From: Pustulibacterium marinum
GTDB taxonomy: Bacteria > Bacteroidota > Bacteroidia > Flavobacteriales > Flavobacteriaceae
Assembly (NCBI RefSeq): GCF_900116665.1
Contig: NZ_FPBK01000015.1
Location: forward strand, 1 to 64,000
Direction of reading: 5' to 3'
Length of the DNA stretch: 64,000 bases
The notes under the pieces were generated by a model that saw only the letters and a program-made list of their open reading frames with translations, searched no databases and was not told where the DNA came from. Shown in pieces: positions 3,601-37,274 of this stretch (position 1 is the first letter of the stretch; the number at the start of each line of letters is the position of its first letter). Position numbers and translations under genes: made by a program.

Positions 3601-4176
3601 CTACAACATATCAGCAACAAACGCCTGTAGCTCAGTGAAAAAAGCAAAGAACTCCGTTTCAAAAGCATCGTAATGGGCTAGCAAACTGTCACCGGCAATG
3701 TCCAGTGCGCCTCTAAACTTGGTTTTGTGATGCATTTGTTTCAAAATGGTATCTATCCCTTCAATACTAGCATACATGACCAACCAATTGTATTGCAGCA
3801 TAGGTGGCATCAGTCGTAAAATTCGCGGAGGTAAAAGCGCTTCGTGTTCCTGTAAGCTTTTATAGAAATCAGCTGCATAAACATCCAGTGGAGTAGGGTG
3901 GAACTGTTCCCAGTGCTTAGCCAAAAAATGATCATAAAGCATGTCTACAATCACCCCGCTATAATGCCCGTGTACGGCATGGAGCTTCTTGGTACTTTGG
4001 CGTACAATGGGGTGCGCATCGGTATAAGTGTCTATAGCCCTGTGGAGTAGAATTCCTTTTTGAATATCCGGAGGGTAGGTTTGGTACTGTTTGCCTTTAA
4101 TACCGTCTGCAATAAAATTTCCTATGGTAAGTAGTTCATCCGCACCGGATAAATAGATATGGGCTAAGTAATTCAT
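3601..4176 (-). CDS. acpH: acyl carrier protein phosphodiesterase (AcpH family)
   Basis: The N-terminus MNYLAHIYLSG...NFIADGIKG... matches the AcpH signature (MNFLAHLHLA...). The ORF-track start at 4245 looks like an over-extension; the likely start is the MNYLAH Met. Confidence 0.7.
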   Translation of the reverse strand: MNYLAHIYLSGADELLTIGNFIADGIKGKQYQTYPPDIQKGILLHRAIDTYTDAHPIVRQSTKKLHAVHGHYSGVIVDMLYDHFLAKHWEQFHPTPLDVYAADFYKSLQEHEALLPPRILRLMPPMLQYNWLVMYASIEGIDTILKQMHHKTKFRGALDIAGDSLLAHYDAFETEFFAFFTELQAFVADML

Positions 4177-22982: not shown

Positions 22983-25388
22983 TTAATAATTTAATGTAAG
23001 TTGTAATCTAAAGTTTCTACCTAGGTCATCTGCATAGTAGCGTTGTCTATTTAAATAGTTACGGTAACTAGTGTCTAAGATGTTATCTACGTAAAAACCT
23101 ATGTTTAAATCGTTTCTTTTAAATGTATTTAGTGTAATCTGAGAATTAAAATGTAATAATCCATATCCCTTTGGAGGTTTACTTAAAGCTACTGTTCTGG
23201 TCACTGTTCCCTCTGATGACGTATAAGTAGCTTCAAAATCGTTATTTGGATAACGAGTTTGGGTAAACACTGTTTGAGCTTTGAGCCCAAGTTGTAACTG
23301 ATGCCATTTTGGAATGTTGAATTTTATTTCATTGGTCCAATTGGCAGCAGGTATATCTATAATTGGAGTTTTTTCTTCTGAATTTTGAGCATACACGTAT
23401 GCAAATGAAGAATTAAGTTTCCATCTATCTGTAATGTTATAAGATGCATCAGCATCTACACCGGTAAAAAATGCATCTGCCTGGCTATATTCCCAAACAG
23501 GAAAAGCTCCTCGTGTGGTTTGCTCAATTCCAGTAGGTTGTAAAACAATAAAATCCTTGATAAAATTGATATACGGATTGATATTAAAATTGAAATCACC
23601 GTATTGTTTTTCAACTCCTAAGCTAATTTTTTTAGAGATCTCTTGTTGTAATCTAAGATCTCCTAGTTCTATGGTCGCAGCGGAATGGTGAAGACCATCA
23701 CTAAACAATTCTGCAGCATTGGGCGCTCTGCTCGCCATACTTGCATTGGCTGTGAAAATGTAATTGTTGTGAACAGATTTGATACCTGCTGTAGCTGAAA
23801 AATTGTGGTAATCAAAAATAGGATTGGTTAACCATTGCGTGTCATAATCTCCAATGATAATATCTTCAAAATCTTCGTCGTAACCACGTTCTGTCCATCT
23901 TGATTTTCTATAATATTTTTGAGCATCAATATGATTAAAATCATAACGAATACCTGCATCTATAATGGTATTATCTGTTAATTGATGTTCGGCTGTAAAA
24001 TAAGCTGCAGCGTTTATTTGTTCATAATCTGGTATAAGTCGTCTTACGCCGGTATCTGGATTAGGAGTGTTCTTTTGATACCCGCCTGAAAGTCCAAAAT
24101 TCATTTTCAACTTCTGAATTGCATCTAGTTGAAAGTCTGTATTTACCGTATGGGTATTCAGTACCATGTCCATAGAAGGCGTGTCACGGTCATCACCTCT
24201 TCGGATATCGTATTCTTTTCTTTGATTGTTTTGAAAATCATACTGAACCGATAATTTTCCTAATTCTGAAAAGCGCTTGTAAAAATCAGCTTTCACCAAA
24301 TGATGTTGTACATCTTGGTATGGATGTATTAAATCATACGTAAAATCATTGATAATCGTGGGCTCATTACTTTCCAAAGCGTCTACTAAATCTCCGATAC
24401 TTCCAATATGAGATGCTCGTAGAATACCTATTTGCGTATCATACAAACTGTAGTAAAGATTGAATCCGTAATCAAATTTTCGAACTCCCAATCCTAGTGA
24501 AAAGTCCTTTTCTGTAGAACCTGTGTTGGATAAGATATAATCTGGAGCTTCATAATCTCCAAATTTCTTGTAGGTTCCCTGTCCTTTTACGTACCAACCA
24601 TTTTGGAAAGACTTGGTCAAAGAAGACGTTAAACTTCCTCCTTGGCCGTTACTAACTCCTGTAAGCGTTGTTTTTCCATAAAGTGAATCAGATTTTATAG
24701 GTTGTGAACCATCAACTATGATTACACCTCCAATGGCGTCACCACCATATTTTAAAGCTGAAGCACCTTTTACAACGGTAATATGCGAAGCTGAATTAAT
24801 GTCCAAATTTGGAGCATGTTCTACACCCCATTCTTGGTCTTGTAAGCGTACGCCATTGTTAATTACTAAAACCCGGCTACTATGCATACCATGGATTACC
24901 GGTTTTACAATAGAACTCCCGGTGCTTAGGGAAGATACGCCACTTACGCTTGTAAGGGCCGTTCCCAAATTACTGCTGCTGTAAGCTTGAATAGCATCTT
25001 CGTTCAGTTCTTTGGTGTTTGAAGAAACTGATGCCGGATTTAATTTAACACCAGAAACGGTTACTTCACCAATTTCTTCTAAGTGGTGTTCAAGCTTTAT
25101 GTTTTGTTTCGTATCACCATCTATATTAAAAGTTACAATAGTGCTCTCACATTCCGGATGCGAAATTTGTAACTCAACAGTTCCGTTACAAAGTTGTGGT
25201 ATAATGTAATTACCATCAAAGTCGCTTGTTACTTCAGTATCTGTGCCTATTACTTGAATTAATGCTCCAAAAAGGGGAGAGCCATCATGAAAATCTGTAA
25301 TAGTCCCTGAAAGGGTTTGGTTACACTCCTGTGCTGAAGCAATCAAAGAAGTTGTCAAAAATAGAATGACAACAAATAATTGTTTCAT
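22983..25388 (-). CDS. TonB-dependent receptor with N-terminal carboxypeptidase-regulatory-like domain
   Basis: Signal peptide. A plug-domain region. 801 aa. The C-terminal residue is aromatic (...LQLTLNY), which is typical of TBDR barrels. Confidence 0.8.
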   Translation of the reverse strand: MKQLFVVILFLTTSLIASAQECNQTLSGTITDFHDGSPLFGALIQVIGTDTEVTSDFDGNYIIPQLCNGTVELQISHPECESTIVTFNIDGDTKQNIKLEHHLEEIGEVTVSGVKLNPASVSSNTKELNEDAIQAYSSSNLGTALTSVSGVSSLSTGSSIVKPVIHGMHSSRVLVINNGVRLQDQEWGVEHAPNLDINSASHITVVKGASALKYGGDAIGGVIIVDGSQPIKSDSLYGKTTLTGVSNGQGGSLTSSLTKSFQNGWYVKGQGTYKKFGDYEAPDYILSNTGSTEKDFSLGLGVRKFDYGFNLYYSLYDTQIGILRASHIGSIGDLVDALESNEPTIINDFTYDLIHPYQDVQHHLVKADFYKRFSELGKLSVQYDFQNNQRKEYDIRRGDDRDTPSMDMVLNTHTVNTDFQLDAIQKLKMNFGLSGGYQKNTPNPDTGVRRLIPDYEQINAAAYFTAEHQLTDNTIIDAGIRYDFNHIDAQKYYRKSRWTERGYDEDFEDIIIGDYDTQWLTNPIFDYHNFSATAGIKSVHNNYIFTANASMASRAPNAAELFSDGLHHSAATIELGDLRLQQEISKKISLGVEKQYGDFNFNINPYINFIKDFIVLQPTGIEQTTRGAFPVWEYSQADAFFTGVDADASYNITDRWKLNSSFAYVYAQNSEEKTPIIDIPAANWTNEIKFNIPKWHQLQLGLKAQTVFTQTRYPNNDFEATYTSSEGTVTRTVALSKPPKGYGLLHFNSQITLNTFKRNDLNIGFYVDNILDTSYRNYLNRQRYYADDLGRNFRLQLTLNY

Positions 25389-26759: not shown

Positions 26760-27296
26760 ATGGGGACAGTCATAGATTGCTTTATACCTAAAGAAAAAAC
26801 ATACACTATTGAAGAACTGAATAGCATGTTAAGAGCTGTATATTTTGATTGTATGCTTGAGTATGAAAGCTTAGAAAAGTTGGGAAACTATTCGGAGGGT
26901 TTTCATGGTGAATGGTCATTTGAAAATGTAGAGGAAAGTTCAGAGAATTGTACATATATTACAGGTGAAGGCGGTAGTTTTTTTGTAGATATTTATGAAC
27001 ATGTGATTCATATTTGTTGTCTGGAAAGATTTTCTAATCTATATATTGAATTTTCCCCTATTTCTAGAGCTTTGTTGGTTATTTTTAAAGAATTGTGCAA
27101 GACACTGGCTCCAGAAAATACCCAAATGCTTTTGGTAATTGGAGGGAATGGAGAAACCGATGAAATACTAGATAGAATTGCTGAAAACCAAGTTACCATG
27201 CAAGATATTATGGCTGGTTTAGAATCGTTATTTTCTGATCCTGCAAGAATGCCTTCGGATCTAATAGAAAAAAACTGGCTGTTAACTTCTTTATAG
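26760..27296 (+). CDS. hypothetical cytoplasmic protein
   Basis: 178 aa with no recognisable motif. It converges on the XRE regulator with a 6-nt overlap. Confidence 0.4.
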   Translation: MGTVIDCFIPKEKTYTIEELNSMLRAVYFDCMLEYESLEKLGNYSEGFHGEWSFENVEESSENCTYITGEGGSFFVDIYEHVIHICCLERFSNLYIEFSPISRALLVIFKELCKTLAPENTQMLLVIGGNGETDEILDRIAENQVTMQDIMAGLESLFSDPARMPSDLIEKNWLLTSL

Positions 27297-28061
27297 TTTA
27301 TCCTTTAACTTTAAGAATTCCTGCTCTAAGAAACTAAGTTTTTCTTTAATATCCTCAGCTCCGCTATTCGTTTTAATCTCTGGAATTCTGTGATAAAAAC
27401 AATACCGTATTTTCCATAGCATTTGAATATCTTTCAAACTCAGCGTTATATCTTCAATACTTTTATGATCCGCTCTAAGAATTACCTTTTTATCAGTAAG
27501 ATAGAATCGTCTTAAAATTACTTTTTGATTTGCAATCACAACTACAATACTTCCATTAGGAATCTTTTTAAAAACATCTTTTGGAATCAATTCTCCAATG
27601 ACCACATCTTTAGGAAAAAGACCATGATCATGGTCGGTCATTTCAAGATTTTGAACTGTATAACCTAGAAATTCTTTTTGAGTATGTAAAGGAAGTTGGA
27701 GACAAGGAAGTGTTTCCATAAACTCAGGATTTTCAAAGTTATTCAGAAAGTCAGCCTCATTTCTTTCCGTAATACAAGGTATCGATTTGAATTTCTCCTT
27801 TAGTTTTTCTTCTACATTTAAAGATAAATCTCCTTGAAACTTTAGTAATTTATTTACCGTAAGTTCTTTGGTTAGTAAATCGTCTACAGTGATGCTAAAA
27901 TAATTAGCTATTTTTAGTAAGGTATCTATTTTTGGTTCACTTCGTCCTTCTTCATAAGCACCTAGTGTACCACGTTTTAGATCAAAAACATCGGCAAAAG
28001 CTTGCTGACTCATGTTCTTTACATTTCTAATCTTCCTAATATTTTTACCAAAAAAAGACAT
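27291..28061 (-). CDS. XRE-family HTH transcriptional regulator with a LexA/CI-like (S24-fold) C-terminal domain
   Basis: The N-terminal HTH_3 is NMSQQAFADVFDLKRGTLGAYEEGRSEPKIDTLLKIANYFSITVDDLL. The C-terminal beta-rich segment GSIVVVIANQKVILRRFY...KVILRADH has an S24-like pattern. The catalytic Ser-Lys dyad is not obvious, which suggests a non-autocleaving repressor. Confidence 0.6.
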   Translation of the reverse strand: MSFFGKNIRKIRNVKNMSQQAFADVFDLKRGTLGAYEEGRSEPKIDTLLKIANYFSITVDDLLTKELTVNKLLKFQGDLSLNVEEKLKEKFKSIPCITERNEADFLNNFENPEFMETLPCLQLPLHTQKEFLGYTVQNLEMTDHDHGLFPKDVVIGELIPKDVFKKIPNGSIVVVIANQKVILRRFYLTDKKVILRADHKSIEDITLSLKDIQMLWKIRYCFYHRIPEIKTNSGAEDIKEKLSFLEQEFLKLKDKL

Positions 28062-28063
28062 AT

Positions 28064-28195
28064 TTAGCTAATTTTATTTGCAATTATAAAAATATATTGT
28101 ATATTTATCTAAAAATATTAGCTAATATACAAATAAATTGCTAATCAGATCAACTTAGAGAATGTTTGTAGAAATATTTCTAAAATGATTAGCAA
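28064..28195. promoter_or_regulatory. divergent promoter/operator region with four palindromic TTAGCWAA motifs
   Basis: ATTTAGCTAAT at 28062-28072, ATTAGCTAAT at 28117-28126, TTGCTAAT at 28138-28145, and its reverse complement ATTAGCAA at 28188-28195. The paired sites are about 50-53 bp apart. The region is AT-rich with TAnnTTTG-like -7 elements on both strands. Confidence 0.45.
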
Positions 28196-28332
28196 AAGAA
28201 GTAGAATTATTTTTTAAACCAACCGTTATGATTACAGTATTTTTAATAACTTATGCCAAAATTATTTGCATACTAAAATGCTGCTGTGTGCTTTGGGGCA
28301 TTTTATAAAACCAACTTAAAATTTAGTAACGA

Positions 28333-28728
28333 ATGAAAGATCATTTTCAAATCACTAAAAACTATGTATTAGAACTCAACTTTACTATAACTTACGAAAG
28401 CCGCGAAGAAGAAGTGCTGGTAGTACAAAAAGAAGCCTTTGGAATCAAAAACCTGATTATTGGTGTAGCAGCTCCTATATTAATTATGGAGCAGTTTATT
28501 TTCAACATCAACAGTCAAAACGAAAAGGTGTTCAGAAACCTGTTACAGAAGAATCGTGATATTATTCATGGAGCGTTTTGTTTAGATGAAAGTGGTAAAC
28601 GCGTTATTTTCAGAGATACATTACAAATTGAAAATTTAGACCTCAACGAACTCAAGGGTTCGCTAAACTCATTAAGTTTATTAATGAGTGAATACTCAGA
28701 TAAGATTATTGAATTCTCAAAATATTAA
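28333..28728 (+). CDS. hypothetical protein, possibly YbjN-like, first gene of a PspA-flotillin operon
   Basis: 131 aa, cytoplasmic, mixed alpha/beta. Its stop is 11 nt before the pspA-like start. The YbjN assignment is a weak guess. Confidence 0.4.
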   Translation: MKDHFQITKNYVLELNFTITYESREEEVLVVQKEAFGIKNLIIGVAAPILIMEQFIFNINSQNEKVFRNLLQKNRDIIHGAFCLDESGKRVIFRDTLQIENLDLNELKGSLNSLSLLMSEYSDKIIEFSKY

Positions 28729-28739
28729 AGCCATCGATT

Positions 28740-29450
28740 ATGAACCTATTTAAAAGACTATTTAAAATTGGAGAAGCAGAAGCAAATTCTGCTATAGATA
28801 AAATGGAAGACCCTATCAAAATGACTGAACAGGGAATCCGCGATATGAAACAAGATCTTGAAAAAAGCTTGGAGGCTTTGGCACAAGTAAAAGCCATGTC
28901 TATTCGTTCAAAAAATGAACAGGAAGAGTATCAAGATAAAGCAGCTGATTATCAAAGTAAAGCGATTTTAATTTTGAAAAAGGCTGAAAAAGGAGATATG
29001 GAAACTGCAGAAGCAGATAGATTAGCACAACAGGCATTGATCAAAAAACAAGAGTCAGATCAACAAGCTGAGCGTGCAAAATTAGAAGCTAGTAAATTTG
29101 ATGATTCCATTGCACAACTGGAGAAAAACATTCAGAATATAAAAGCAAGTATCAGCAATTGGGAAAACGAATTGCGTACGCTAAAAGCAAGAGTAAAAGT
29201 ATCCAATGCTACCAAAAACCTGAACAAGCAAATGGCAGAGATTGATAGCAGTAGTACCGTTTCTATGTTAGAACGTATGAAAGAGAAAGTAGCCCAGGAA
29301 GAAGCGTTGGCAGAAGCTTACGGAGATATTGCAAATACTTCTAAATCTGTAGATGACGAATTAAATGCAGCCGTAGATACTACCGAAGCAAAAGCTACAG
29401 ACGATTTAGCAAAATTAAAACAACAATTAGGACTTAATAAACAGGAGTAA
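28740..29450 (+). CDS. pspA: PspA/IM30/Vipp1 family protein (ESCRT-III-like)
   Basis: MNLFKRLFKIGEAEANSAIDKMEDPIKMTEQGIRDMKQDLEKS aligns with the E. coli PspA N-terminus ([43 protein letters not shown]). Entirely coiled-coil. 236 aa. Confidence 0.8.
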   Translation: MNLFKRLFKIGEAEANSAIDKMEDPIKMTEQGIRDMKQDLEKSLEALAQVKAMSIRSKNEQEEYQDKAADYQSKAILILKKAEKGDMETAEADRLAQQALIKKQESDQQAERAKLEASKFDDSIAQLEKNIQNIKASISNWENELRTLKARVKVSNATKNLNKQMAEIDSSSTVSMLERMKEKVAQEEALAEAYGDIANTSKSVDDELNAAVDTTEAKATDDLAKLKQQLGLNKQE

Positions 29451-29452
29451 CC

Positions 29453-30163
29453 TTGAGCAACATAGGTCATATTATATTTTCAGAGGTAAATATAACCCTT
29501 ACCATTCTAATGCTTTTGCTGATCGTCTATTGGATTTTAACCATGGTCAGCGGCATTGACTTTGACTACGATGTAGACATCGATATAGATTTGGATGTAG
29601 ACGTAGATGCAGATGCGGGCATAGAAGGTGGAAATATGGATTTTCAGGATATCTCAAACGCAGAGGTAGACAAAGAGCAAGTAATAGGCAACAGAAGACA
29701 ACCGCTAAAGTGGTGGCAAATTGTGCTCATCTATTTCAACTTTGTAGGGCTACCATTTATGTTCACCTTTACCGCCTGGATTTTTATCTGGTGGTTTGCA
29801 ACAGTACTCATTACCAAATTAACGGGTAGCTATGAAAATGCCTTTGGCTTTGTAGTGATGCTTGGAGCCATGATTCCAGCATTGTTTGTTACCAAAATAT
29901 TTACAACTCCTTTTAAAGGATTCTTCAAGAATCTAAATAAAGACGGCGACAAGGCTGTGGAATATTTGGGCAGAACCGGAATCATGTTGTCTAGTATAGA
30001 AGGTGAACGCATGGGAAATGCCGAAGTCACAATCAACGGAGATTCGTATAACATTTATGTAAAGTCGTTAGACGGATCACCCTTGAAATACCAACAAAAA
30101 ATATTAATCATCAACCAGTCTGCAGACAAGAACTCTTTTCTTGTTCAGGCGTATAACAACTAA
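29453..30163 (+). CDS. NfeD-like (YqiJ-like) membrane protein with C-terminal OB-fold and an acidic (D-V/I)n tract
   Basis: Three TM helices. A DFDYDVDIDIDLDVDVDADAG acidic repeat lies after TM1. The C-terminal beta-rich GNAEVTINGDSYNIYVKS...KILIINQSADKNSFLVQ is typical of the NfeD OB domain. Starts 3 nt after the pspA stop and lies immediately upstream of the flotillin gene, as in yqiJK-type operons. Confidence 0.7.
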   Translation: MSNIGHIIFSEVNITLTILMLLLIVYWILTMVSGIDFDYDVDIDIDLDVDVDADAGIEGGNMDFQDISNAEVDKEQVIGNRRQPLKWWQIVLIYFNFVGLPFMFTFTAWIFIWWFATVLITKLTGSYENAFGFVVMLGAMIPALFVTKIFTTPFKGFFKNLNKDGDKAVEYLGRTGIMLSSIEGERMGNAEVTINGDSYNIYVKSLDGSPLKYQQKILIINQSADKNSFLVQAYNN

Positions 30164-30179
30164 ATAACTTTAATAACCA

Positions 30180-32270
30180 ATGGGAGAAATTTTATCAATT
30201 ATCGGAATGGGTGTAGGGCTTGTTCTGTTTTTGATAGTGGTATATTTTGCCATTATCGCAATGTTTTACAAAAAGGTACATCAGGGACAAGCCTTGGTAC
30301 GTACCGGATTTGGAGGAACCAAAGTAGCAACCGACAAAGGTTTGTACGTGGTGCCGGTTTTCCACAGAGTGGAAGTAATGGATATTTCAGTAAAGAAAAT
30401 TCAAATTGAACGTTTATCGCACGAAGGCTTAATCTGTAAAGACAACATGCGTGCAGATATCAAAGTAGCATTTTTCGTTCGTGTCAACAACGATGTTAAT
30501 TTTATAAAGAAAGTAGCGCAAACCATTGGGGTTGCGAGAGCTTCTCGTATAGAAACTTTGGAAGATTTGTTTGAAGCAAAATTCTCAGAGGCCTTGAAAA
30601 CCGTAGGGAAAAAGTTCGATTTTATTGAATTGTACGAAGCACGTCGTGAATTCCGTGATGAGATTGTAGACATCATCGGTACCGATTTAAACGGATATAC
30701 CTTAGAAGATTGTGCTATTGACTTTTTAGAGCAAACGCCTATTTCGCACTTAAAAGCTGATAACATTTTAGATGCAGAAGGTATTAAAAAGATCACGGAG
30801 CTTACGGCAAATCAAAATGTAAAAGCCAACTTAATCAAACGTGATGAAGAGAAAACCATTCGCAAGCAAGATGTCGAAGCACGCGAAGCGATTCTGGCGT
30901 TAGACAAACAATTGGCTGAAAAAGAAGAGCAACAAAAACGTGAGATTGCCAACATCAAGGCTCGTGAAGAAGCAGAAACCTTGAAAGTAGCCGAAGAAGA
31001 GCGTTTAAAATCAGAATCTGCAAGAATTGCTACGGAAGAAAAAGTAAAAGTAGCCGAAGAAAACATGCAACGTCAAATCATTGTAGCTGCTAAAAATAAA
31101 GAGCGTACCAATGCTATTGAAAACGAGCGTGTAGAAAAAGACAGAATGTTAGAAGCTACCGAAAGAGAACGCGTGGTAACACTGGCTCAGATAGAAAAAG
31201 AGAAAGTAGTAGAGGTAGAGAAGAAGAACATTCAAGATGTGATCAGAGACCGCGTGATGTTAGAAAAAGGCGTGGTAGAAGAGCAAGAAAGCATGAAAGA
31301 TATTGAAGCTTTCAAAACTGCTGATCGTGAGAAGAAAGTGAAGATTACCAATGCCGAAGCGAAAGCGCAGGAAGAATTGATCAAAACTATCAAAGAAGCT
31401 GAAGCGAAGAAAGAAGCAGCAAAACAACGTGCCGAAGAAATCAATATCGAAGCAATGGCGCGCAAAGAAGCCAGCGAAAAAGAAGCCGAAGCACGCAAAA
31501 CATTGGCAGAAGCCAAAGCGAAAGAAGAAGCCATTATTGGTATGTCTGAAGCGCAGGTAATGCATGCAAAAGCAGATGCTAGCGAACGTCAGGGAATTGT
31601 AGATGCATCGATCATTGAGAAGAAAGCAAAAGCCGAAGCTGCAGGAATCGAAGCAAAAGCACAAGCCGAATTGAAAGAAGGAAAAGCACAAGCCGAAGTT
31701 ATCAAAGACAAAGCCTTGGCCGATGCTGCCGGAATTGAAGAAAAAGCGGCTGCCATGAAGAAACTAGACGGTGTTGGTAAAGAACATGAAGAGTTCAAAC
31801 TACGTTTAGATAAAGAATTACAGGTAGACTTGGCAAACATTAATATTCAAAAAGAGATTGCAGACGCACAAGCCTTGGTATTGAGCGATGCCTTGAAAAA
31901 CTCGAAAATTGATATTGTGGGTGGAGAAACCATGTTCTTCGATCAAATTGTTGGACAAATTACCAGAGGTAAAGGAATCGACAGATTGGTACAGAACAGT
32001 GAAAACATTCAGCAAGTAAAAGATTCTATCTTAGGCAGCGATGACATTCAGGGAAACTTACTTGAAAAAGTAAAAGAGTTTTCTGCTAAGTATGGCATCT
32101 CTTCAGAAGACCTAAAGAACTTTACCATCGCTAATTTGTTGATGGATCTTAAAAAGAAATCTAACAGTGACAAAGAACACACCATGTTCAACAATTTGTT
32201 AAACCTGGCACAAGGCTTAGGATTGTCCGATAAAACTGTTGGAAGTATCAAAAGAGAACATTTAAAATAA
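30180..32270 (+). CDS. flotillin / SPFH (band-7) family protein, YqiK/FloT-like, extended
   Basis: N-terminal TM helix. The SPFH domain is ...ALVRTGFGGTKVATDKGLYVVPVFHRVEVMDISVKKIQIE.... A long EA-rich coiled coil follows (KAREEAETLKVAEEERLK...AEAKAQEEL...) and a C-terminal flotillin tail. 696 aa, longer than typical bacterial flotillins. Confidence 0.85.
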   Translation: MGEILSIIGMGVGLVLFLIVVYFAIIAMFYKKVHQGQALVRTGFGGTKVATDKGLYVVPVFHRVEVMDISVKKIQIERLSHEGLICKDNMRADIKVAFFVRVNNDVNFIKKVAQTIGVARASRIETLEDLFEAKFSEALKTVGKKFDFIELYEARREFRDEIVDIIGTDLNGYTLEDCAIDFLEQTPISHLKADNILDAEGIKKITELTANQNVKANLIKRDEEKTIRKQDVEAREAILALDKQLAEKEEQQKREIANIKAREEAETLKVAEEERLKSESARIATEEKVKVAEENMQRQIIVAAKNKERTNAIENERVEKDRMLEATERERVVTLAQIEKEKVVEVEKKNIQDVIRDRVMLEKGVVEEQESMKDIEAFKTADREKKVKITNAEAKAQEELIKTIKEAEAKKEAAKQRAEEINIEAMARKEASEKEAEARKTLAEAKAKEEAIIGMSEAQVMHAKADASERQGIVDASIIEKKAKAEAAGIEAKAQAELKEGKAQAEVIKDKALADAAGIEEKAAAMKKLDGVGKEHEEFKLRLDKELQVDLANINIQKEIADAQALVLSDALKNSKIDIVGGETMFFDQIVGQITRGKGIDRLVQNSENIQQVKDSILGSDDIQGNLLEKVKEFSAKYGISSEDLKNFTIANLLMDLKKKSNSDKEHTMFNNLLNLAQGLGLSDKTVGSIKREHLK

Positions 32271-32387: not shown

Positions 32388-35300
32388 ATGAATTTACGTA
32401 TGCAAGAAGAAGATAAAAAACAACCTGATGCGCAAGTGCTCGAAGGCGGAACCTATGAGATTATTCAGGGCCGTTTGCAAAAGCAAAAGCAGGATCTTCA
32501 GCAACGCTTACAACGGTTAAATGAAGATCGTAAAAAGGTATTTGGTTCGTTAGAAACCAAACTGTTGGCCAACAATCGCGTCAGTACAGAAAACAATTGT
32601 ATTACCCGCGACATTGTTACCATAGAATCCTATTGCATTTTTGGCTATAATGTGCATTTCGGACTGCGAACAGAGATTACACTGTCCGATGTGTTCAGTA
32701 TTTATCAGTACCAGGAGCAGCAATTTAAAACGGTGGATTTATCGTTGTTACAAGACGAAACCTTTATCACCGATTTTACGAATCTTTATAAATACTATCG
32801 CAATACCATATTTGCTAAGTTCTCTGTTATTGGGAATTACCTCTATATGGTGTTTCAATTAAGCGATAGTGTAACCGATATCAAAGCGTTTAAATGGTTG
32901 ATCAAAGATGGGCAATTGCACTACATTGACAACCGAAGCGACCATGAGGTAAAATATCCTGCGCAGCACGAATTTAAATGGTTGGAAGCAGGCCGCGATA
33001 ATCAGCGTTACGGCGAACATGCCCATGTTTCCATTTTAGATAAGGTTTTTGTAGAAACCATTGGTGGCGATCTTACCATTAAGGTGGAAGACAATACCAA
33101 CGACGGACAAGGGATTTATTCCGAACCTGTTGAAATGGTAGATCAAACCCTGGATGACGGACAATTCCGTTATGCAGACTTGGGTAACTTGATTGCATTA
33201 GAGATCAAACCCTTTCAGGAGGCACCCCGCTATTTTGTCTACAATCACAAGATCAAAGAGGTGCAAAAGATTGAGAGCATCAAGGAAGCCGCCATCTTAT
33301 TACCGGACGAACAGGGGATTATTTTCCCGAATGGCTATTATTTACAAACCGGAGAGTATCAGGTTTTTGATAGCGATACCGATAACCTGAAGTTTTTAAA
33401 ACGCATTGCTTCGCCAAATGGGGAAGATTACCTGTTTGTGTTCTACGGAGCTGCTTTGGGCACTTATGTCCTCATGCAATACAACGTTATTGAGCAAACC
33501 GTGCAAACACCTATCATTTGTAATGGTTTTACCATTCATGGGAATGGTGAATTGTGCTACTTTAAACAGGAAGAAGAGCAAACCAAACACCACATGATGC
33601 AGATTTGGCAAACACCTTTCTTAAAAGGAGATATTATGCCGTCTCAGCATCAAGATACCTTGTTGTACAAGATAGGGAATAAGGATATTGTGCGTGCTAT
33701 GGCCGAGTCTCAGGAGTTGATCAACTTGTTAAGCAAAGAAGATTCCTATAGCGGATTGTATGCAGACATTGCCAAGCTTTCCAAAGACATTTTAGATGCC
33801 TATTATTGGTTAACGGAGGAAGAAACCCAGCAATTAAAACTGCCCTTAGCAGAGATCAACAAAGCTGCGAATGCCGCTATTGATGAGTTTGCCAAAGTGG
33901 TACAATTAAAGAAGACTGCCGGAAAAGAAACCGAAGTATTACAAGGCAAAGCCGATGCTGTTTTTGGCAAGGTGAAAAGCACTTCCTTTAAATCGATTGA
34001 CGATTTTGTGTTGTTGCTCAACCAATTGCGAACATTGCGTGGCGAAGCCATTGGTTTGTACGAGATCAGGTATGTAGATACGCAATTTATCAAAGGGATA
34101 GAGGAAGAAATCGCCGCACATACCCAAAAAATATCAGAGCGTTGTGTGCAGTTTTTGCTAGACGACAAAGCTTTGGCTCCATATCATGAAAGAGTAGCCG
34201 AAAAAGAGCAGCACTTAGCCGAAATTCACAAAGTAATCGATGCTAAAAAGCTGGAAGAAGAGGTAAATCAGATTGCGAACGATCTGGAGATGTTAATCGA
34301 TATTGTTTCCAATCTTTCTATTGAAGATACTTCGCACTCTACCAAGATTATTGACAATATTTCGTTGATTTTCGCCACTTTAAATCAGTTAAAGGCGGGC
34401 ATTAAAAACAAACGCAAGTCACTGGGTAGCAAAGAAGCCAAAGCCGATTTTGTAGCACAGTTAAAACTGGCCGATCAAAGTATCATCAATTACTTAGATA
34501 TTGCTGATACGGTGGAGAAGTGTGATGAATTTCAAACGAAGATCACCATTCAGTTAGAAGAGCTGGAAGGGAAGTTTGCCGATTACGAAGAATTCATTGC
34601 ACAGATCATTGAAAAGCGCGAAGAGGTGTACAATGCCTTTGAAGGCAGAAAAACCGCCATTGCAGAAAAGCGTAACAAAAAGAGTTTAGCGCTGGAGAAT
34701 GCCGCCGATCGTATTTTAAAAGGAGTTGACAAACGAGCGCAAAGCTTGGGCAGCAACACCGAGATCAATGGGTATTTTGCTTCGGATTTAATGGTGAACA
34801 AGTTGCGCGATATTGTGCAGCAGTTAAAAGAATTAGACGATACCGGAAGGGCCGAAGAAATAGAAACCAAGCTAAAAGTGGCCCGCGAGGATGCCTTACG
34901 CAAGTTAAAAGACAAACTTGAGTTGTACGAAGACGGTGATAAGGTGATCAAGTTTGGGAAACATAAGTTTGGGGTTAACAAGCAGGTGTTAGACCTTACC
35001 ATTGTGTACAAAAATAATAGTTTGCAGTACCATTTAACCGGAACCGACTTTTACGAAACGGTAACCGACAAAACCTTGTTGAATTCCCGCCAGTTATGGG
35101 AACAGGAATATATTTCGGAGAACAATGCCGTGTATCGTAGTGCCTATTTGGCGTATAAATTGTTTACCAGCATTCCTTCCGAAGTCTTGGAAAACGCTAC
35201 TTCCGAAGAATTGTTAAAGATAGTGCAGGAAGAGAGCAGCAGTAATTATTCCGAAGGGTATATCAAAGGCGTGCACGATGTTGATGCAGCCGCTATTTTG

Positions 35301-37274
35301 GAAACCTTGGTGAAAAAGCATGCCAAATTGGGCTTGTTAAGCTTTGATCCGCAGGTGAGAGCCGCTGCACAATTCTTTTGGCATAGTTTAGATACCGAAG
35401 TACAACAGAATTATGACGAATTACTCAAAGCTTCGGGCGCTGTACTCAGCATTTTTCCGGAGTCTAGAGAGTATGAGTTCTTATTGTTAGAGCTTACAGA
35501 TTATATAGCTGATTTTTCGGTGGAATCTGGTTTGTTTGCTGAAGAACTCAGCGCTGAGGTGGCTACGTATTTGTTTGACGAACTCAAAACTGATGCTACG
35601 TTTATGGTCAGTGGCGATGCTTTGAAGCTAAAAGAAGATTTTCTAAAAGCTTTACAAAGCAAACAGGCCGACCTTCAGTTTAGAAACAGTTATGAGAAGC
35701 TCAGCAACTTTGAAGCGCAGGTACGTTTGGTGCGCCAATGGGTAACTTCCTTCATCAAATCGCATCAAAATGAATATGATGTGGCGTATGCTGATGAGGT
35801 GGTGTGTACTTTGTTGTTTGATACCAAAGCGGTACAGAAAAACACCTATGCGCCAGCCACTACGGTGATAGAAGGACTGAAGGGAGACCATGCCAGCATT
35901 AACGATGGTGTGTATGCGTTCAATTACCATGCGTTCACGCGTTTGTTGGCTACGTATGTGGCCGAAACAGTGCCGGCATTTCAGGAATTTAAAAAGGCAA
36001 AACACGAAGTCACCGAAACTTTGAAAGCCGAACTGAAATTACAAGAGTTAAAACCTAGAGTATTGACGTCTTTTGTGCGTAACAAGCTCATAGACCAGGT
36101 ATACTTGCCGTTGTTTGGCGATAATTTGGCCAAACAATTGGGTACGGTGGGCGATAACAAACGTACCGACCGTATGGGAATGCTCTTATTACTGTCGCCA
36201 CCCGGATACGGAAAAACAACCTTGATGGAATACATGGCCAACCGTTTGGGCTTGGTGTTTATGAAGATTAACGGACCCGCTATTGGTCATGAAGTAACCT
36301 CGGTAGACCCGGCATCGGCTACTAATTCTGCGGCACGCGAAGAGTTAAAGAAACTCAACCTTGCTTTAGAGATGGGCAACAATGTAATGCTGTATTTAGA
36401 TGATATTCAGCATTGCAATCCGGAGTTTTTACAGAAGTTTATTTCGCTTTCCGATGGTACCCGTCGTATAGAAGGGGTGTACAAAGAGAAACCCAAAACC
36501 TACGACCTGCGTGGGAAGAAGTTTTGTGTAATTATGGCCGGAAACCCGTATACCGAAAGCGGTGAAAAGTTCCGTATACCCGATATGTTGGCCAACCGTG
36601 CCGATATTTACAATCTGGGTGACATTATTGGCGATACCGCACATTTGTTTAAACTTAGTTTGATAGAGAATGCGTTGACATCGAACCCGGTGTTGCAGCA
36701 ATTGAGCAGTAAGTATTTTGACGATGTGTACAAATTGCTAGATAAGGTAGAAAACAAAAATCTGGAGGTGCAACTAGAGGGCAACCACACCACGCAAGAG
36801 ATAGAAGAGTACGTAGCGGTGATAGAAAAGGTGGTTACCATACGCAATACGGTGTTAAAGGTGAACGAAACCTATATAAAATCGGCTGCGATGGAAGACG
36901 AATACCGTACCGAACCTTCGTTTAAACTGCAAGGCTCGTATAGAGATATGAACAAACTGGTAAGCAAGGTAGTACCTATTATGAATGAGGCCGAATTGCA
37001 GCGCCTGTTGCTATCGCATTACGAGAGTGAGTCGCAAACCTTAACCTCGGCTGCCGAAGCCAACCTGTTAAAGTACAAAGAACTCATAGGTGAGCTCAAT
37101 ACCACCGAGCAAGACCGTTGGGACAGTATTAAAGTAACGTTTCAGAAAAACAACAAGCTCAAAGGCTTTGGAAACCAAAACGAAATGGCACAAGTACTTA
37201 CCCAAATGATGGCTTTTACCGATAATCTGGAAGGCATTAAAAAAGTATTAGAACAAGGACTCAAAAACGAGTAA
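32388..37274 (+). CDS. giant (1,628-aa) multidomain protein: aromatic/Cys-rich N-terminal globular region, ~800-aa coiled coil, C-terminal AAA_5 (MoxR/dynein-like) P-loop ATPase
   Basis: Walker A LLLLSPPGYGKTTL (nt ~36200-36223). Walker B VMLYLDDIQ. Sensor-1 FCVIMAGNPYTE. A putative Arg finger in IPDMLANRADIY. This pattern matches AAA_5/MoxR (DEINRA...ATQNP). Residues ~430-1230 are heptad-rich and helical. Residues ~60-420 are rich in Y/F/W/C (ESYCIFGYNVHFG, ICNGFTIHGNGELCYF). A strong terminator follows. Confidence 0.75.
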   Translation: MNLRMQEEDKKQPDAQVLEGGTYEIIQGRLQKQKQDLQQRLQRLNEDRKKVFGSLETKLLANNRVSTENNCITRDIVTIESYCIFGYNVHFGLRTEITLSDVFSIYQYQEQQFKTVDLSLLQDETFITDFTNLYKYYRNTIFAKFSVIGNYLYMVFQLSDSVTDIKAFKWLIKDGQLHYIDNRSDHEVKYPAQHEFKWLEAGRDNQRYGEHAHVSILDKVFVETIGGDLTIKVEDNTNDGQGIYSEPVEMVDQTLDDGQFRYADLGNLIALEIKPFQEAPRYFVYNHKIKEVQKIESIKEAAILLPDEQGIIFPNGYYLQTGEYQVFDSDTDNLKFLKRIASPNGEDYLFVFYGAALGTYVLMQYNVIEQTVQTPIICNGFTIHGNGELCYFKQEEEQTKHHMMQIWQTPFLKGDIMPSQHQDTLLYKIGNKDIVRAMAESQELINLLSKEDSYSGLYADIAKLSKDILDAYYWLTEEETQQLKLPLAEINKAANAAIDEFAKVVQLKKTAGKETEVLQGKADAVFGKVKSTSFKSIDDFVLLLNQLRTLRGEAIGLYEIRYVDTQFIKGIEEEIAAHTQKISERCVQFLLDDKALAPYHERVAEKEQHLAEIHKVIDAKKLEEEVNQIANDLEMLIDIVSNLSIEDTSHSTKIIDNISLIFATLNQLKAGIKNKRKSLGSKEAKADFVAQLKLADQSIINYLDIADTVEKCDEFQTKITIQLEELEGKFADYEEFIAQIIEKREEVYNAFEGRKTAIAEKRNKKSLALENAADRILKGVDKRAQSLGSNTEINGYFASDLMVNKLRDIVQQLKELDDTGRAEEIETKLKVAREDALRKLKDKLELYEDGDKVIKFGKHKFGVNKQVLDLTIVYKNNSLQYHLTGTDFYETVTDKTLLNSRQLWEQEYISENNAVYRSAYLAYKLFTSIPSEVLENATSEELLKIVQEESSSNYSEGYIKGVHDVDAAAILETLVKKHAKLGLLSFDPQVRAAAQFFWHSLDTEVQQNYDELLKASGAVLSIFPESREYEFLLLELTDYIADFSVESGLFAEELSAEVATYLFDELKTDATFMVSGDALKLKEDFLKALQSKQADLQFRNSYEKLSNFEAQVRLVRQWVTSFIKSHQNEYDVAYADEVVCTLLFDTKAVQKNTYAPATTVIEGLKGDHASINDGVYAFNYHAFTRLLATYVAETVPAFQEFKKAKHEVTETLKAELKLQELKPRVLTSFVRNKLIDQVYLPLFGDNLAKQLGTVGDNKRTDRMGMLLLLSPPGYGKTTLMEYMANRLGLVFMKINGPAIGHEVTSVDPASATNSAAREELKKLNLALEMGNNVMLYLDDIQHCNPEFLQKFISLSDGTRRIEGVYKEKPKTYDLRGKKFCVIMAGNPYTESGEKFRIPDMLANRADIYNLGDIIGDTAHLFKLSLIENALTSNPVLQQLSSKYFDDVYKLLDKVENKNLEVQLEGNHTTQEIEEYVAVIEKVVTIRNTVLKVNETYIKSAAMEDEYRTEPSFKLQGSYRDMNKLVSKVVPIMNEAELQRLLLSHYESESQTLTSAAEANLLKYKELIGELNTTEQDRWDSIKVTFQKNNKLKGFGNQNEMAQVLTQMMAFTDNLEGIKKVLEQGLKNE

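Follow-up and report, generated by a model that had tools for sequence, protein, structure and literature searches.

We describe here a 271-bp intergenic region and its flanking genes in Pustulibacterium marinum, a member of the Flavobacteriaceae, analysed within a window of 64,000 nucleotides (nt; positions 1 to 64,000 of contig NZ_FPBK01000015.1). The gap separates two divergent units. On the minus strand lies a regulator gene (27291..28061), whose product of 256 amino acids joins an XRE-type helix-turn-helix (HTH) through a linker to an S24-like beta domain devoid of catalytic residues, has a helix at its C-terminus, and is 100% identical to a P. marinum protein. On the plus strand lies a row of genes which has as its first long gene a CesT/Tir-like (YbjN-like) gene (28333..28728; Pfam CesT_Tir_1, 2.5e-54) and continues with a PspA/IM30 gene (28740..29450; PspA_IM30, 2.7e-42), a membrane-protein gene in the YqiJ/YuaF-like slot (29453..30163), assigned by position only since it has no Pfam match, and conserved in that position, a Band-7/flotillin gene (30180..32270; Band_7, 6e-15) and a gene for a DUF3686-DUF7902-AAA+ ATPase of 1628 amino acids (32388..37274; DUF3686, 3e-180; AAA_5, 3.9e-8). 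With a profile of regulator homologues we fetched 80 genomic loci from about 20 genera of Flavobacteriaceae, at 54-69% protein identity, and in 78 of them the regulator is divergent to CesT-PspA. The membrane-protein and flotillin genes come next in most of them, and in nine only CesT or CesT-PspA was detected. In the other two loci (L053 and L058) a tblastn search found no CesT or PspA gene upstream of the regulator.

The unit that is repeated and conserved in the gap is a 15-bp dyad, GCTAA-N5-TTAGC. The first copy, O1 (28067..28081, GCTAATTTTATTTGC), stands 6 bp from the regulator's ATG; O2 (28108..28122, TCTAAAAATATTAGC) covers the predicted start of operon transcription; O3 (28140..28154, GCTAATCAGATCAAC) has one perfect half and, in P. 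marinum, one weak half; and the distal O4 (28179..28193, TCTAAAATGATTAGC), which a repeat search pairs with O2 as a direct repeat (D1), has a single mismatch to the dyad. Their centres are 41, 32 and 39 bp apart. All ten dyad positions of O1 are 100% conserved in 78 loci, including a T-to-A departure that all of them share and that reads GCAAA on the regulator strand, and the GCTAA..TTAG of O2 is conserved at 98-100%. The good half of O3 (TTAGC on the regulator strand) is kept at about -83 in most loci and its second half is degenerate (nCTmA), and a distal site with no more than one mismatch occurs in 41 of the 78, 30-63 bp past O3. The geometry is fixed too, with O1 and O2 separated by 41-42 bp in 77 of the 78 loci and O2 and O3 by 32 bp in 70. 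With positions counted from the regulator ATG, most or nearly all loci show TTAGC at -10, at -64 and again at -83, and GCTAA at -61, and the rest of the spacer diverges; the dyad columns are invariant across some 20 genera, and neighbouring third codon positions are free to vary. A possible weak fifth intergenic site (28255..28269, GCCAAAATTATTTGC), with two mismatches, lies within a small open reading frame (ORF) described below; it is matched in position only by the two closest genera (L005 and L006), and its membership of the array is doubtful.

Chance is a poor explanation for this clustering. Dyads with no more than one mismatch number eight in the window against 2.83 expected, and four of the eight lie within 300 bp of the regulator start. 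The three such sites observed in the intergenic region were not equalled or exceeded in any of 20,000 Markov-1 simulations trained on that region. With up to two mismatches allowed, the 78 orthologous intergenic regions contain 12.5 dyads per kb and the rest of those loci 0.62 per kb.

The initial annotation of this DNA had parsed the same letters differently, as four palindromic TTAGCWAA operator-like motifs placed about five helical turns apart, on which dimers or tetramers would bind: ATTTAGCTAAT (28062-28072), ATTAGCTAAT (28117-28126), TTGCTAAT (28138-28145) and ATTAGCAA (28188-28195). All four sequences are indeed there, but each is one half-site of a different 15-bp dyad, and the intervals of about 53 and 50 bp from which five turns were read span halves of different operators; the distances that evolution has conserved, 41-42 and 32 bp, correspond to about four and three turns. 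As for density, none of TTAGCWAA (13 in the window against 12.6 expected), TTAGCTAA (3 against 2.28) and ATTAGC (34 against 44) is enriched; it is the local clustering that is unusual. At O2, TTAGCTAA is present in 56 of the 78 loci, which speaks for an 8-bp unit, but at O1 it is present in only three and is thus a local accident there. Half-sites about 5 bp apart also do not suit the way in which XRE-type HTH proteins usually dimerise. What is conserved are partner half-sites 10 bp away, and when a related protein, WP_025606010.1 of Pontibacter actiniarum, was assayed, the dyad and the length of its spacer mattered for binding and the dyad-adjacent positions did not (PMC8565304). We consider the 8-bp arrangement very improbable. 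The broader claim of operator-like sites tied to the adjacent regulator has fared much better, and comparative evidence now stands behind it.

Part of that evidence is a further copy of the dyad within the regulator gene itself. This site, Oi (27894..27908, GCTAAAATAATTAGC), is the sole zero-mismatch dyad of the window and spells codons A52-N-Y-F-S56 of the HTH domain. Its Ala codon is GCT in 75 of 75 loci (against 42% usage elsewhere in the regulator genes), its Phe codon TTT in 75 of 75 (87% elsewhere) and its Ser codon AGC in 72 of 75 (19% elsewhere), whereas the codon in the spacer is free to be AAT (56) or AAC (19), in the background ratio. In 22 representative genomes the entropies of the Ala, Phe and Ser codons are 0, 0 and 0.27 bits, compared with 0.5-1.8 bits for other invariant Ala and Ser codons of the same gene, and other AGY serines favour AGT (18:3 and 18:4). 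The codon choice at Oi reflects selection acting on the DNA itself, and Oi is an example of codon choice constrained by a (predicted) DNA-binding site. In the P. actiniarum SOS regulator gene, a one-mismatch dyad occupies the same codons as Oi (L081, +154).

The sites also go with the regulator gene, because L053 and L058, where no CesT or PspA gene was found, retain O1, O2 and Oi. A regulator homologue of 44% identity keeps O1, O2, O3 and Oi beside a full operon. At 36% identity (L084), where the homologue adjoins CesT-PspA only, the spacer (3871-4000) contains no CTAA-N5-TTAG and has instead a different dyad, GTATA-N5-TATAC, at -70 together with ATTGTCAT repeats, and here operator and recognition helix (LKRTSVGAYEEGR) may have co-varied.

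How might such sites act on transcription? Scanning for sigma-70 promoters and terminators yields no useful information in Bacteroidetes, and we scanned instead for the flavobacterial sigma-A consensus, TTTG at -33 and TAnnTTTG at -7, the latter spanning -12 to -5 in Flavobacterium psychrophilum (PMC9723704). On the operon strand, TTTG-N19-TAnnTTTA stands at one conserved position in all 78 intergenic regions. In the window the candidate -33 element (TTTG, 28077..28080, plus strand) lies within O1, and the candidate -7 box (TATATTTA, 28100..28107, plus strand) belongs to a block found in all loci, always 19 nt past the TTTG; the TTTG is created by the one point at which O1 universally departs from the dyad, with TTTGC for TTAGC. 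This operon-directed sigma-A promoter would start transcription at about 28112, inside O2, and on this reading O3 and O4 would sit in a transcribed leader of some 220 nt. The regulator's own promoter is a more tentative call, with a candidate -33 TTG in the O2 spacer and a candidate -7 element at -34 to -27.

The fit of O1 and of the O1-O2 block to the Bacteroidetes -33 and -7 consensus, together with the want of enrichment of the 8-mer, might suggest that the conserved blocks are promoter elements and AT-rich leader and nothing else, their dyad symmetry being incidental and no dedicated factor being involved. We attach almost no probability to this idea. Against it stand five copies of one dyad whose 5-nt spacer is fixed, a copy in coding sequence with frozen synonymous sites among them, and a motif identical to that proven for a homologous protein by electrophoretic mobility shift assay (EMSA; PMC8565304). 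Reading the dyads as RNA hairpins was rejected by reasoning, since the stems would be 5 bp long, AT-rich and weak and the motif is a proven protein site in a related family; an Rfam search of 27800-28800 returned sub-threshold chance matches only and no known RNA element. A 10-nt perfect inverted repeat, TTGCTAATCA / TGATTAGCAA (28138-28147 / 28186-28195, arms 38 nt apart), links the good half of O3 with that of O4.

The adjacent protein is the candidate factor. The initial annotation had credited it with an HTH_3 domain and a LexA/CI-like fold that seems to lack the catalytic Ser, and Pfam, structure prediction and alignment bear this out. HTH_3 (PF01381) matches residues 8-62 at 6.3e-12, and Peptidase_S24 (PF00717) reaches 22.7 bits, below its cut-off of 23.3, over profile positions 29-110 only. 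The AlphaFold2 model, at a predicted local distance difference test (pLDDT) of 79, shows five or six helices at the N-terminus, then a beta domain and finally a C-terminal helix (235-255); the beta domain, residues 92-222 or so (strands E92-97 to E212-222), fits the C-terminal domains of LexA and CI with root-mean-square deviations of 2.4-3.5 Å, and the best Foldseek matches in the PDB are T. maritima LexA (3k2z) and lambda CI (3bdn). In BLASTP the regulator matches WP_025606010.1 (our P0271) at E = 3e-28, with 26% identity over 240 amino acids. Around the recognition helix, the window-regulator group and the P. actiniarum group both have an invariant KRxxxGAYEEGRxEPK, and the two share a terminal alpha-helix, which has also been noted for non-canonical LexA (PMC8565304).

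What this lineage has given up is catalysis. The scissile Ala-Gly has become A103-D104 in the window regulator and x-D/E/A in its family, where no Ala-Gly is conserved; GDSM has become NLEM, the catalytic Ser being replaced by an invariant E140; and FKR has become LRR, the catalytic Lys being replaced by an invariant R184. It is therefore the whole cleavage apparatus, and not the Ser alone, that is gone. A sequence search of the PDB with the C-terminal domain gave weak LexA matches only, and its HMMER alignment with P. aeruginosa LexA, which sets the Ser opposite F149, disagrees with the alignment to the much closer Pontibacter protein (E140), but under neither alignment is there a Ser. Among 134 diverse relatives of 30-50% identity, counted together with the window protein, the Ser position most often carries Glu (56 of 135) and Arg occupies the Lys position in 82 of 135 aligned sequences, which points to a large non-catalytic branch. 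This Glu/Arg branch comprises 741 clusters at 50% identity (E <= 1e-10; representative proteins P0121-P0270), and some of its matches are long proteins with many tandem HTH copies, such as P0136, with 1002 amino acids and 11 matched stretches. Judged from its residues, self-cleavage of the regulator would be impossible: with neither a catalytic dyad nor a cleavage site, RecA-stimulated autoproteolysis is not available to it.

Neither the motif nor the protein family is new. Bacteroidetes lack a canonical LexA and have instead XRE-HTH/S24 'non-canonical LexA' proteins, in two groups, one that recognises GGA-N5-TCC and another that recognises CTAA-N5-TTAG (Sanchez-Osuna et al. 2021, PMC8565304); the CTAA-N5-TTAG specificity of WP_025606010.1 was established by EMSA with dyad and spacer mutants, and relatives act as repressors induced on damage (PMC8565304). 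The window regulator resembles the CTAA-N5-TTAG proteins in its XRE HTH, S24-like domain and terminal helix, in its recognition-helix residues, in its dyad and spacer, and in having several sites in its own promoter (here O1 and O2 without exception in the 78 loci, O3 in the majority). It differs from them in that its Ala-Gly, Ser and Lys are all replaced, and in that it adjoins a PspA-flotillin operon and not SOS genes.

Could the sites nevertheless be SOS boxes, read by a separate, cleavable CTAA-N5-TTAG repressor that places operon and regulator together in a DNA-damage regulon, the adjacent protein not being the main binder? At its core the motif is the very SOS box validated for the family, and paralogy is common within the group that binds CTAA-N5-TTAG (PMC8565304). 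Flavobacteriaceae do hold homologues of both groups, but in them the SOS regulon follows the GGA-N5-TCC regulator (PMC8565304). A case against the idea is Dokdonia donghaensis, for which only two family homologues are listed, namely the orthologue of the window regulator (ANH61661.1 = WP_035325255.1) and the GGA-N5-TCC SOS regulator (PMC8565304). Moreover, the sites track the regulator gene and one of them lies inside it, and no SOS gene adjoins the sites in any of the 80 loci. We judge a main role as SOS boxes to be quite improbable. WP_035325255.1 itself appears only in Table S9 of that study, among additional BLASTP homologues, and not in its catalytic-residue alignment, tree or site tables, and neither the paper nor its supplements name PspA or flotillin (PMC8565304). 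One candidate orthologue from Table S5, AUW17_RS09270 of Tenacibaculum dicentrarchi, was rejected: it carries CTAATTTTATTTG, identical to the O1 core, but the spacing of its sites, 19, 64 and 83 bp, misfits the layout of the window regulator's family (PMC8565304).

We therefore favour, and think likely, a mechanism in which a non-cleavable LexA-family paralogue represses both its own gene and the CesT-PspA-YqiJ-flotillin-AAA+ operon through the array at 27894-28193; the prediction that it is an autoregulating, non-cleavable repressor of the PspA-flotillin operon, made in the initial annotation, is well supported by comparative and homology evidence. Regulator dimers would bind the 15-bp dyads, the HTH reading the CTAA half-site and the S24-like domain dimerising. 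With O1 over the -33 element and O2 over the predicted start, the operon promoter would be occluded, and probably the regulator's promoter too. Since O1, O2 and O3 are four and three helical turns apart, they lie roughly on one face of the DNA, which makes cooperative occupancy possible; O3 and O4 in the leader and Oi in the gene may serve cooperative or auxiliary binding, with Oi perhaps a looping site. Occupancy would shut off the operon and the regulator's divergent promoter alike. And because Ala-Gly, Ser and Lys are all replaced, relief by RecA-type self-cleavage is unavailable and induction would need another input, our guess being a protein partner or a ligand linked to membrane stress. 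A partner encoded in the operon is a reasonable candidate, because in P. aeruginosa the CesT-like BacA controls a homologous operon negatively (PMC10948618).

Several observations weigh against this mechanism in one part or another. The -7 box ends in A at every locus, where the consensus has G. A promoter directed at the regulator, laid out as the mirror of the first, is called in only some 40 of the 78 loci, and the window gives a poor match. In P. marinum the dyad of O3 is weak, and the distance between Oi and O1 (173 bp, about 16.5 turns) is not obviously in phase. As the core motif is the SOS box of cleavable relatives, there may be cross-talk with another CTAA-binding paralogue encoded elsewhere in the genome. 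Lastly, LexA-family proteins can also activate, and the authors of the EMSA study allow for activation by members of this family as long as mutant data are lacking (PMC8565304).

The regulator might thus bind the sites and yet be mainly an activator, or a dual regulator, of the operon. The XRE-type regulator of the mycobacterial PspA operon, ClgR, is described as an activator. Set against this are the overlap of the operators with the -33 element and the predicted start of a conserved promoter and the presence of more sites downstream of that start. It is this overlap, and the behaviour of the relatives as damage-induced repressors, that lead us to prefer repression. On balance we hold a mainly activating or dual role to be unlikely.

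Comparison with better-known systems is instructive. The two-domain fold is shared with lambda CI and LexA (Foldseek), and so, if we are right, are dimers on palindromes, operators spaced by helical turns over divergent promoters, and autoregulation; the window regulator differs in having no catalytic dyad or cleavage site and a Pfam S24 score below the cut-off. The Tn10 tetR-tetA pair likewise has a compact divergent control region in which palindromic operators overlap promoter elements in both directions, and lac and gal have auxiliary operators inside coding sequence (lacZ O2 and galE OI). Our locus unites these features, a compact divergent region with palindromic operators over promoter elements and an extra operator in coding sequence, but the protein families are unrelated and looping at the window locus is conjecture. 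With the known Psp regulators, PspF (a sigma-54 enhancer-binding AAA+ activator), LiaRS and ClgR, it shares the principle of a dedicated regulator encoded beside pspA, and with ClgR an XRE-type HTH; it stands apart in its dead S24 domain and its predicted role as a repressor. In Pfam searches the regulator carries HTH_3 and the S24-like domain only, with no sigma-54 AAA+ domain and no two-component system.

The operon, too, has a literature of its own. The main text of Ravi et al. 2024 (PMC11237479) describes a class of CesT/Tir-PspA-YqiJ/YuaF-like transmembrane-band-7/flotillin-AAA+ operons, the AAA+ protein having an N-terminal propeller or coiled coil, with ANH61662.1 and ANH61663.1 as archetypes; the window operon agrees with it in gene content and order, the transmembrane protein by position only. 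Content and order also agree with bacABCDEF of P. aeruginosa, where negative control is attributed to the CesT-like BacA (PMC10948618). The accessions ANH61662.1 and ANH61663.1 follow directly on that of the regulator orthologue, ANH61661.1, and in the Dokdonia loci the regulator is divergent to CesT-PspA. Two literatures thus converge on one locus, the regulator orthologue WP_035325255.1 (PMC8565304) adjoining the archetypes of the operon class as given in the main text of the other paper (PMC11237479). The term 'S24' is absent from that main text, other regulator terms not having been looked for, and we found no publication that links the regulator to the PspA operon.

Why should this matter? 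The CesT-PspA-flotillin-AAA+ operon is widespread, and the locus offers a handle on its regulation outside Proteobacteria and Firmicutes, namely an operator of defined sequence, a protein that is a candidate for the repressor, and a predicted promoter with its -33 element built into an operator. It would also be a case of regulator exaptation, in which a dead branch of a family known only as DNA-damage repressors kept CTAA-N5-TTAG and became wired to a membrane-stress operon; in the literature that we found there is no description of the loss of catalysis, of this rewiring, of the conserved design of operators and promoter or of the intragenic operator. Going further, we can offer a speculative scenario, to which we would give only limited credence, in which a LexA-like lineage dropped self-cleavage, kept its DNA specificity and was rewired, in the sampled Flavobacteriaceae genera and at least one distant relative, as the dedicated sensor-repressor of an ESCRT-III-like PspA/flotillin membrane-repair operon. 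Induction might then come about when the vestigial cleft (Glu140, Arg184 and His199-Lys200, all invariant) or the terminal helix binds a stress ligand or one of the operon's products, PspA or the CesT-like protein, with looping to Oi and a hydrophobic leader peptide as extra layers.

The leader peptide just mentioned would be encoded by a small ORF of 26 amino acids (MITVFLITYAKIICILKCCCVLWGIL, 28228..28308, plus strand), conserved in the operon leader between O4 and the CesT-like gene. A hydrophobic ORF of 12-27 amino acids, opening at an ATG with a start like MI.LIIY, occupies this position in 76 of the 78 loci. ORFs of at least 16 codons are found there in 87% of loci; simulations give 29%, and the opposite strand 32%. 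Its product may act as a leader peptide, or it may be a very small membrane protein.

In other genera, a block reading TTTT(C)GTAWTATTRA(AC)C stands some 60-90 nt upstream of the CesT-like gene in loci among L004-L080 (L016 and L025, for example). It is found in Aquimarina, Tenacibaculum, Nonlabens, Gillisia and Dokdonia and is absent from the clade of Pustulibacterium (window 28270-28332), Mesonia, Zhouia and Salegentibacter. The block contains CGT, as does the extracytoplasmic function (ECF)-type -10 box from which Band-7 genes of F. psychrophilum are reported to be driven (PMC9723704), and for this reason it may be a second promoter. Two smaller observations concern the surroundings. A 178-amino-acid ORF without a Pfam match (26760-27296, plus strand) converges on the regulator gene, the 3' ends of the two sharing 6 nt, and GCTAATTTTTTTAGA (23622-23636), one mismatch from the dyad and deep within a TonB-dependent receptor gene (22983-25388, minus strand), is probably a chance match.

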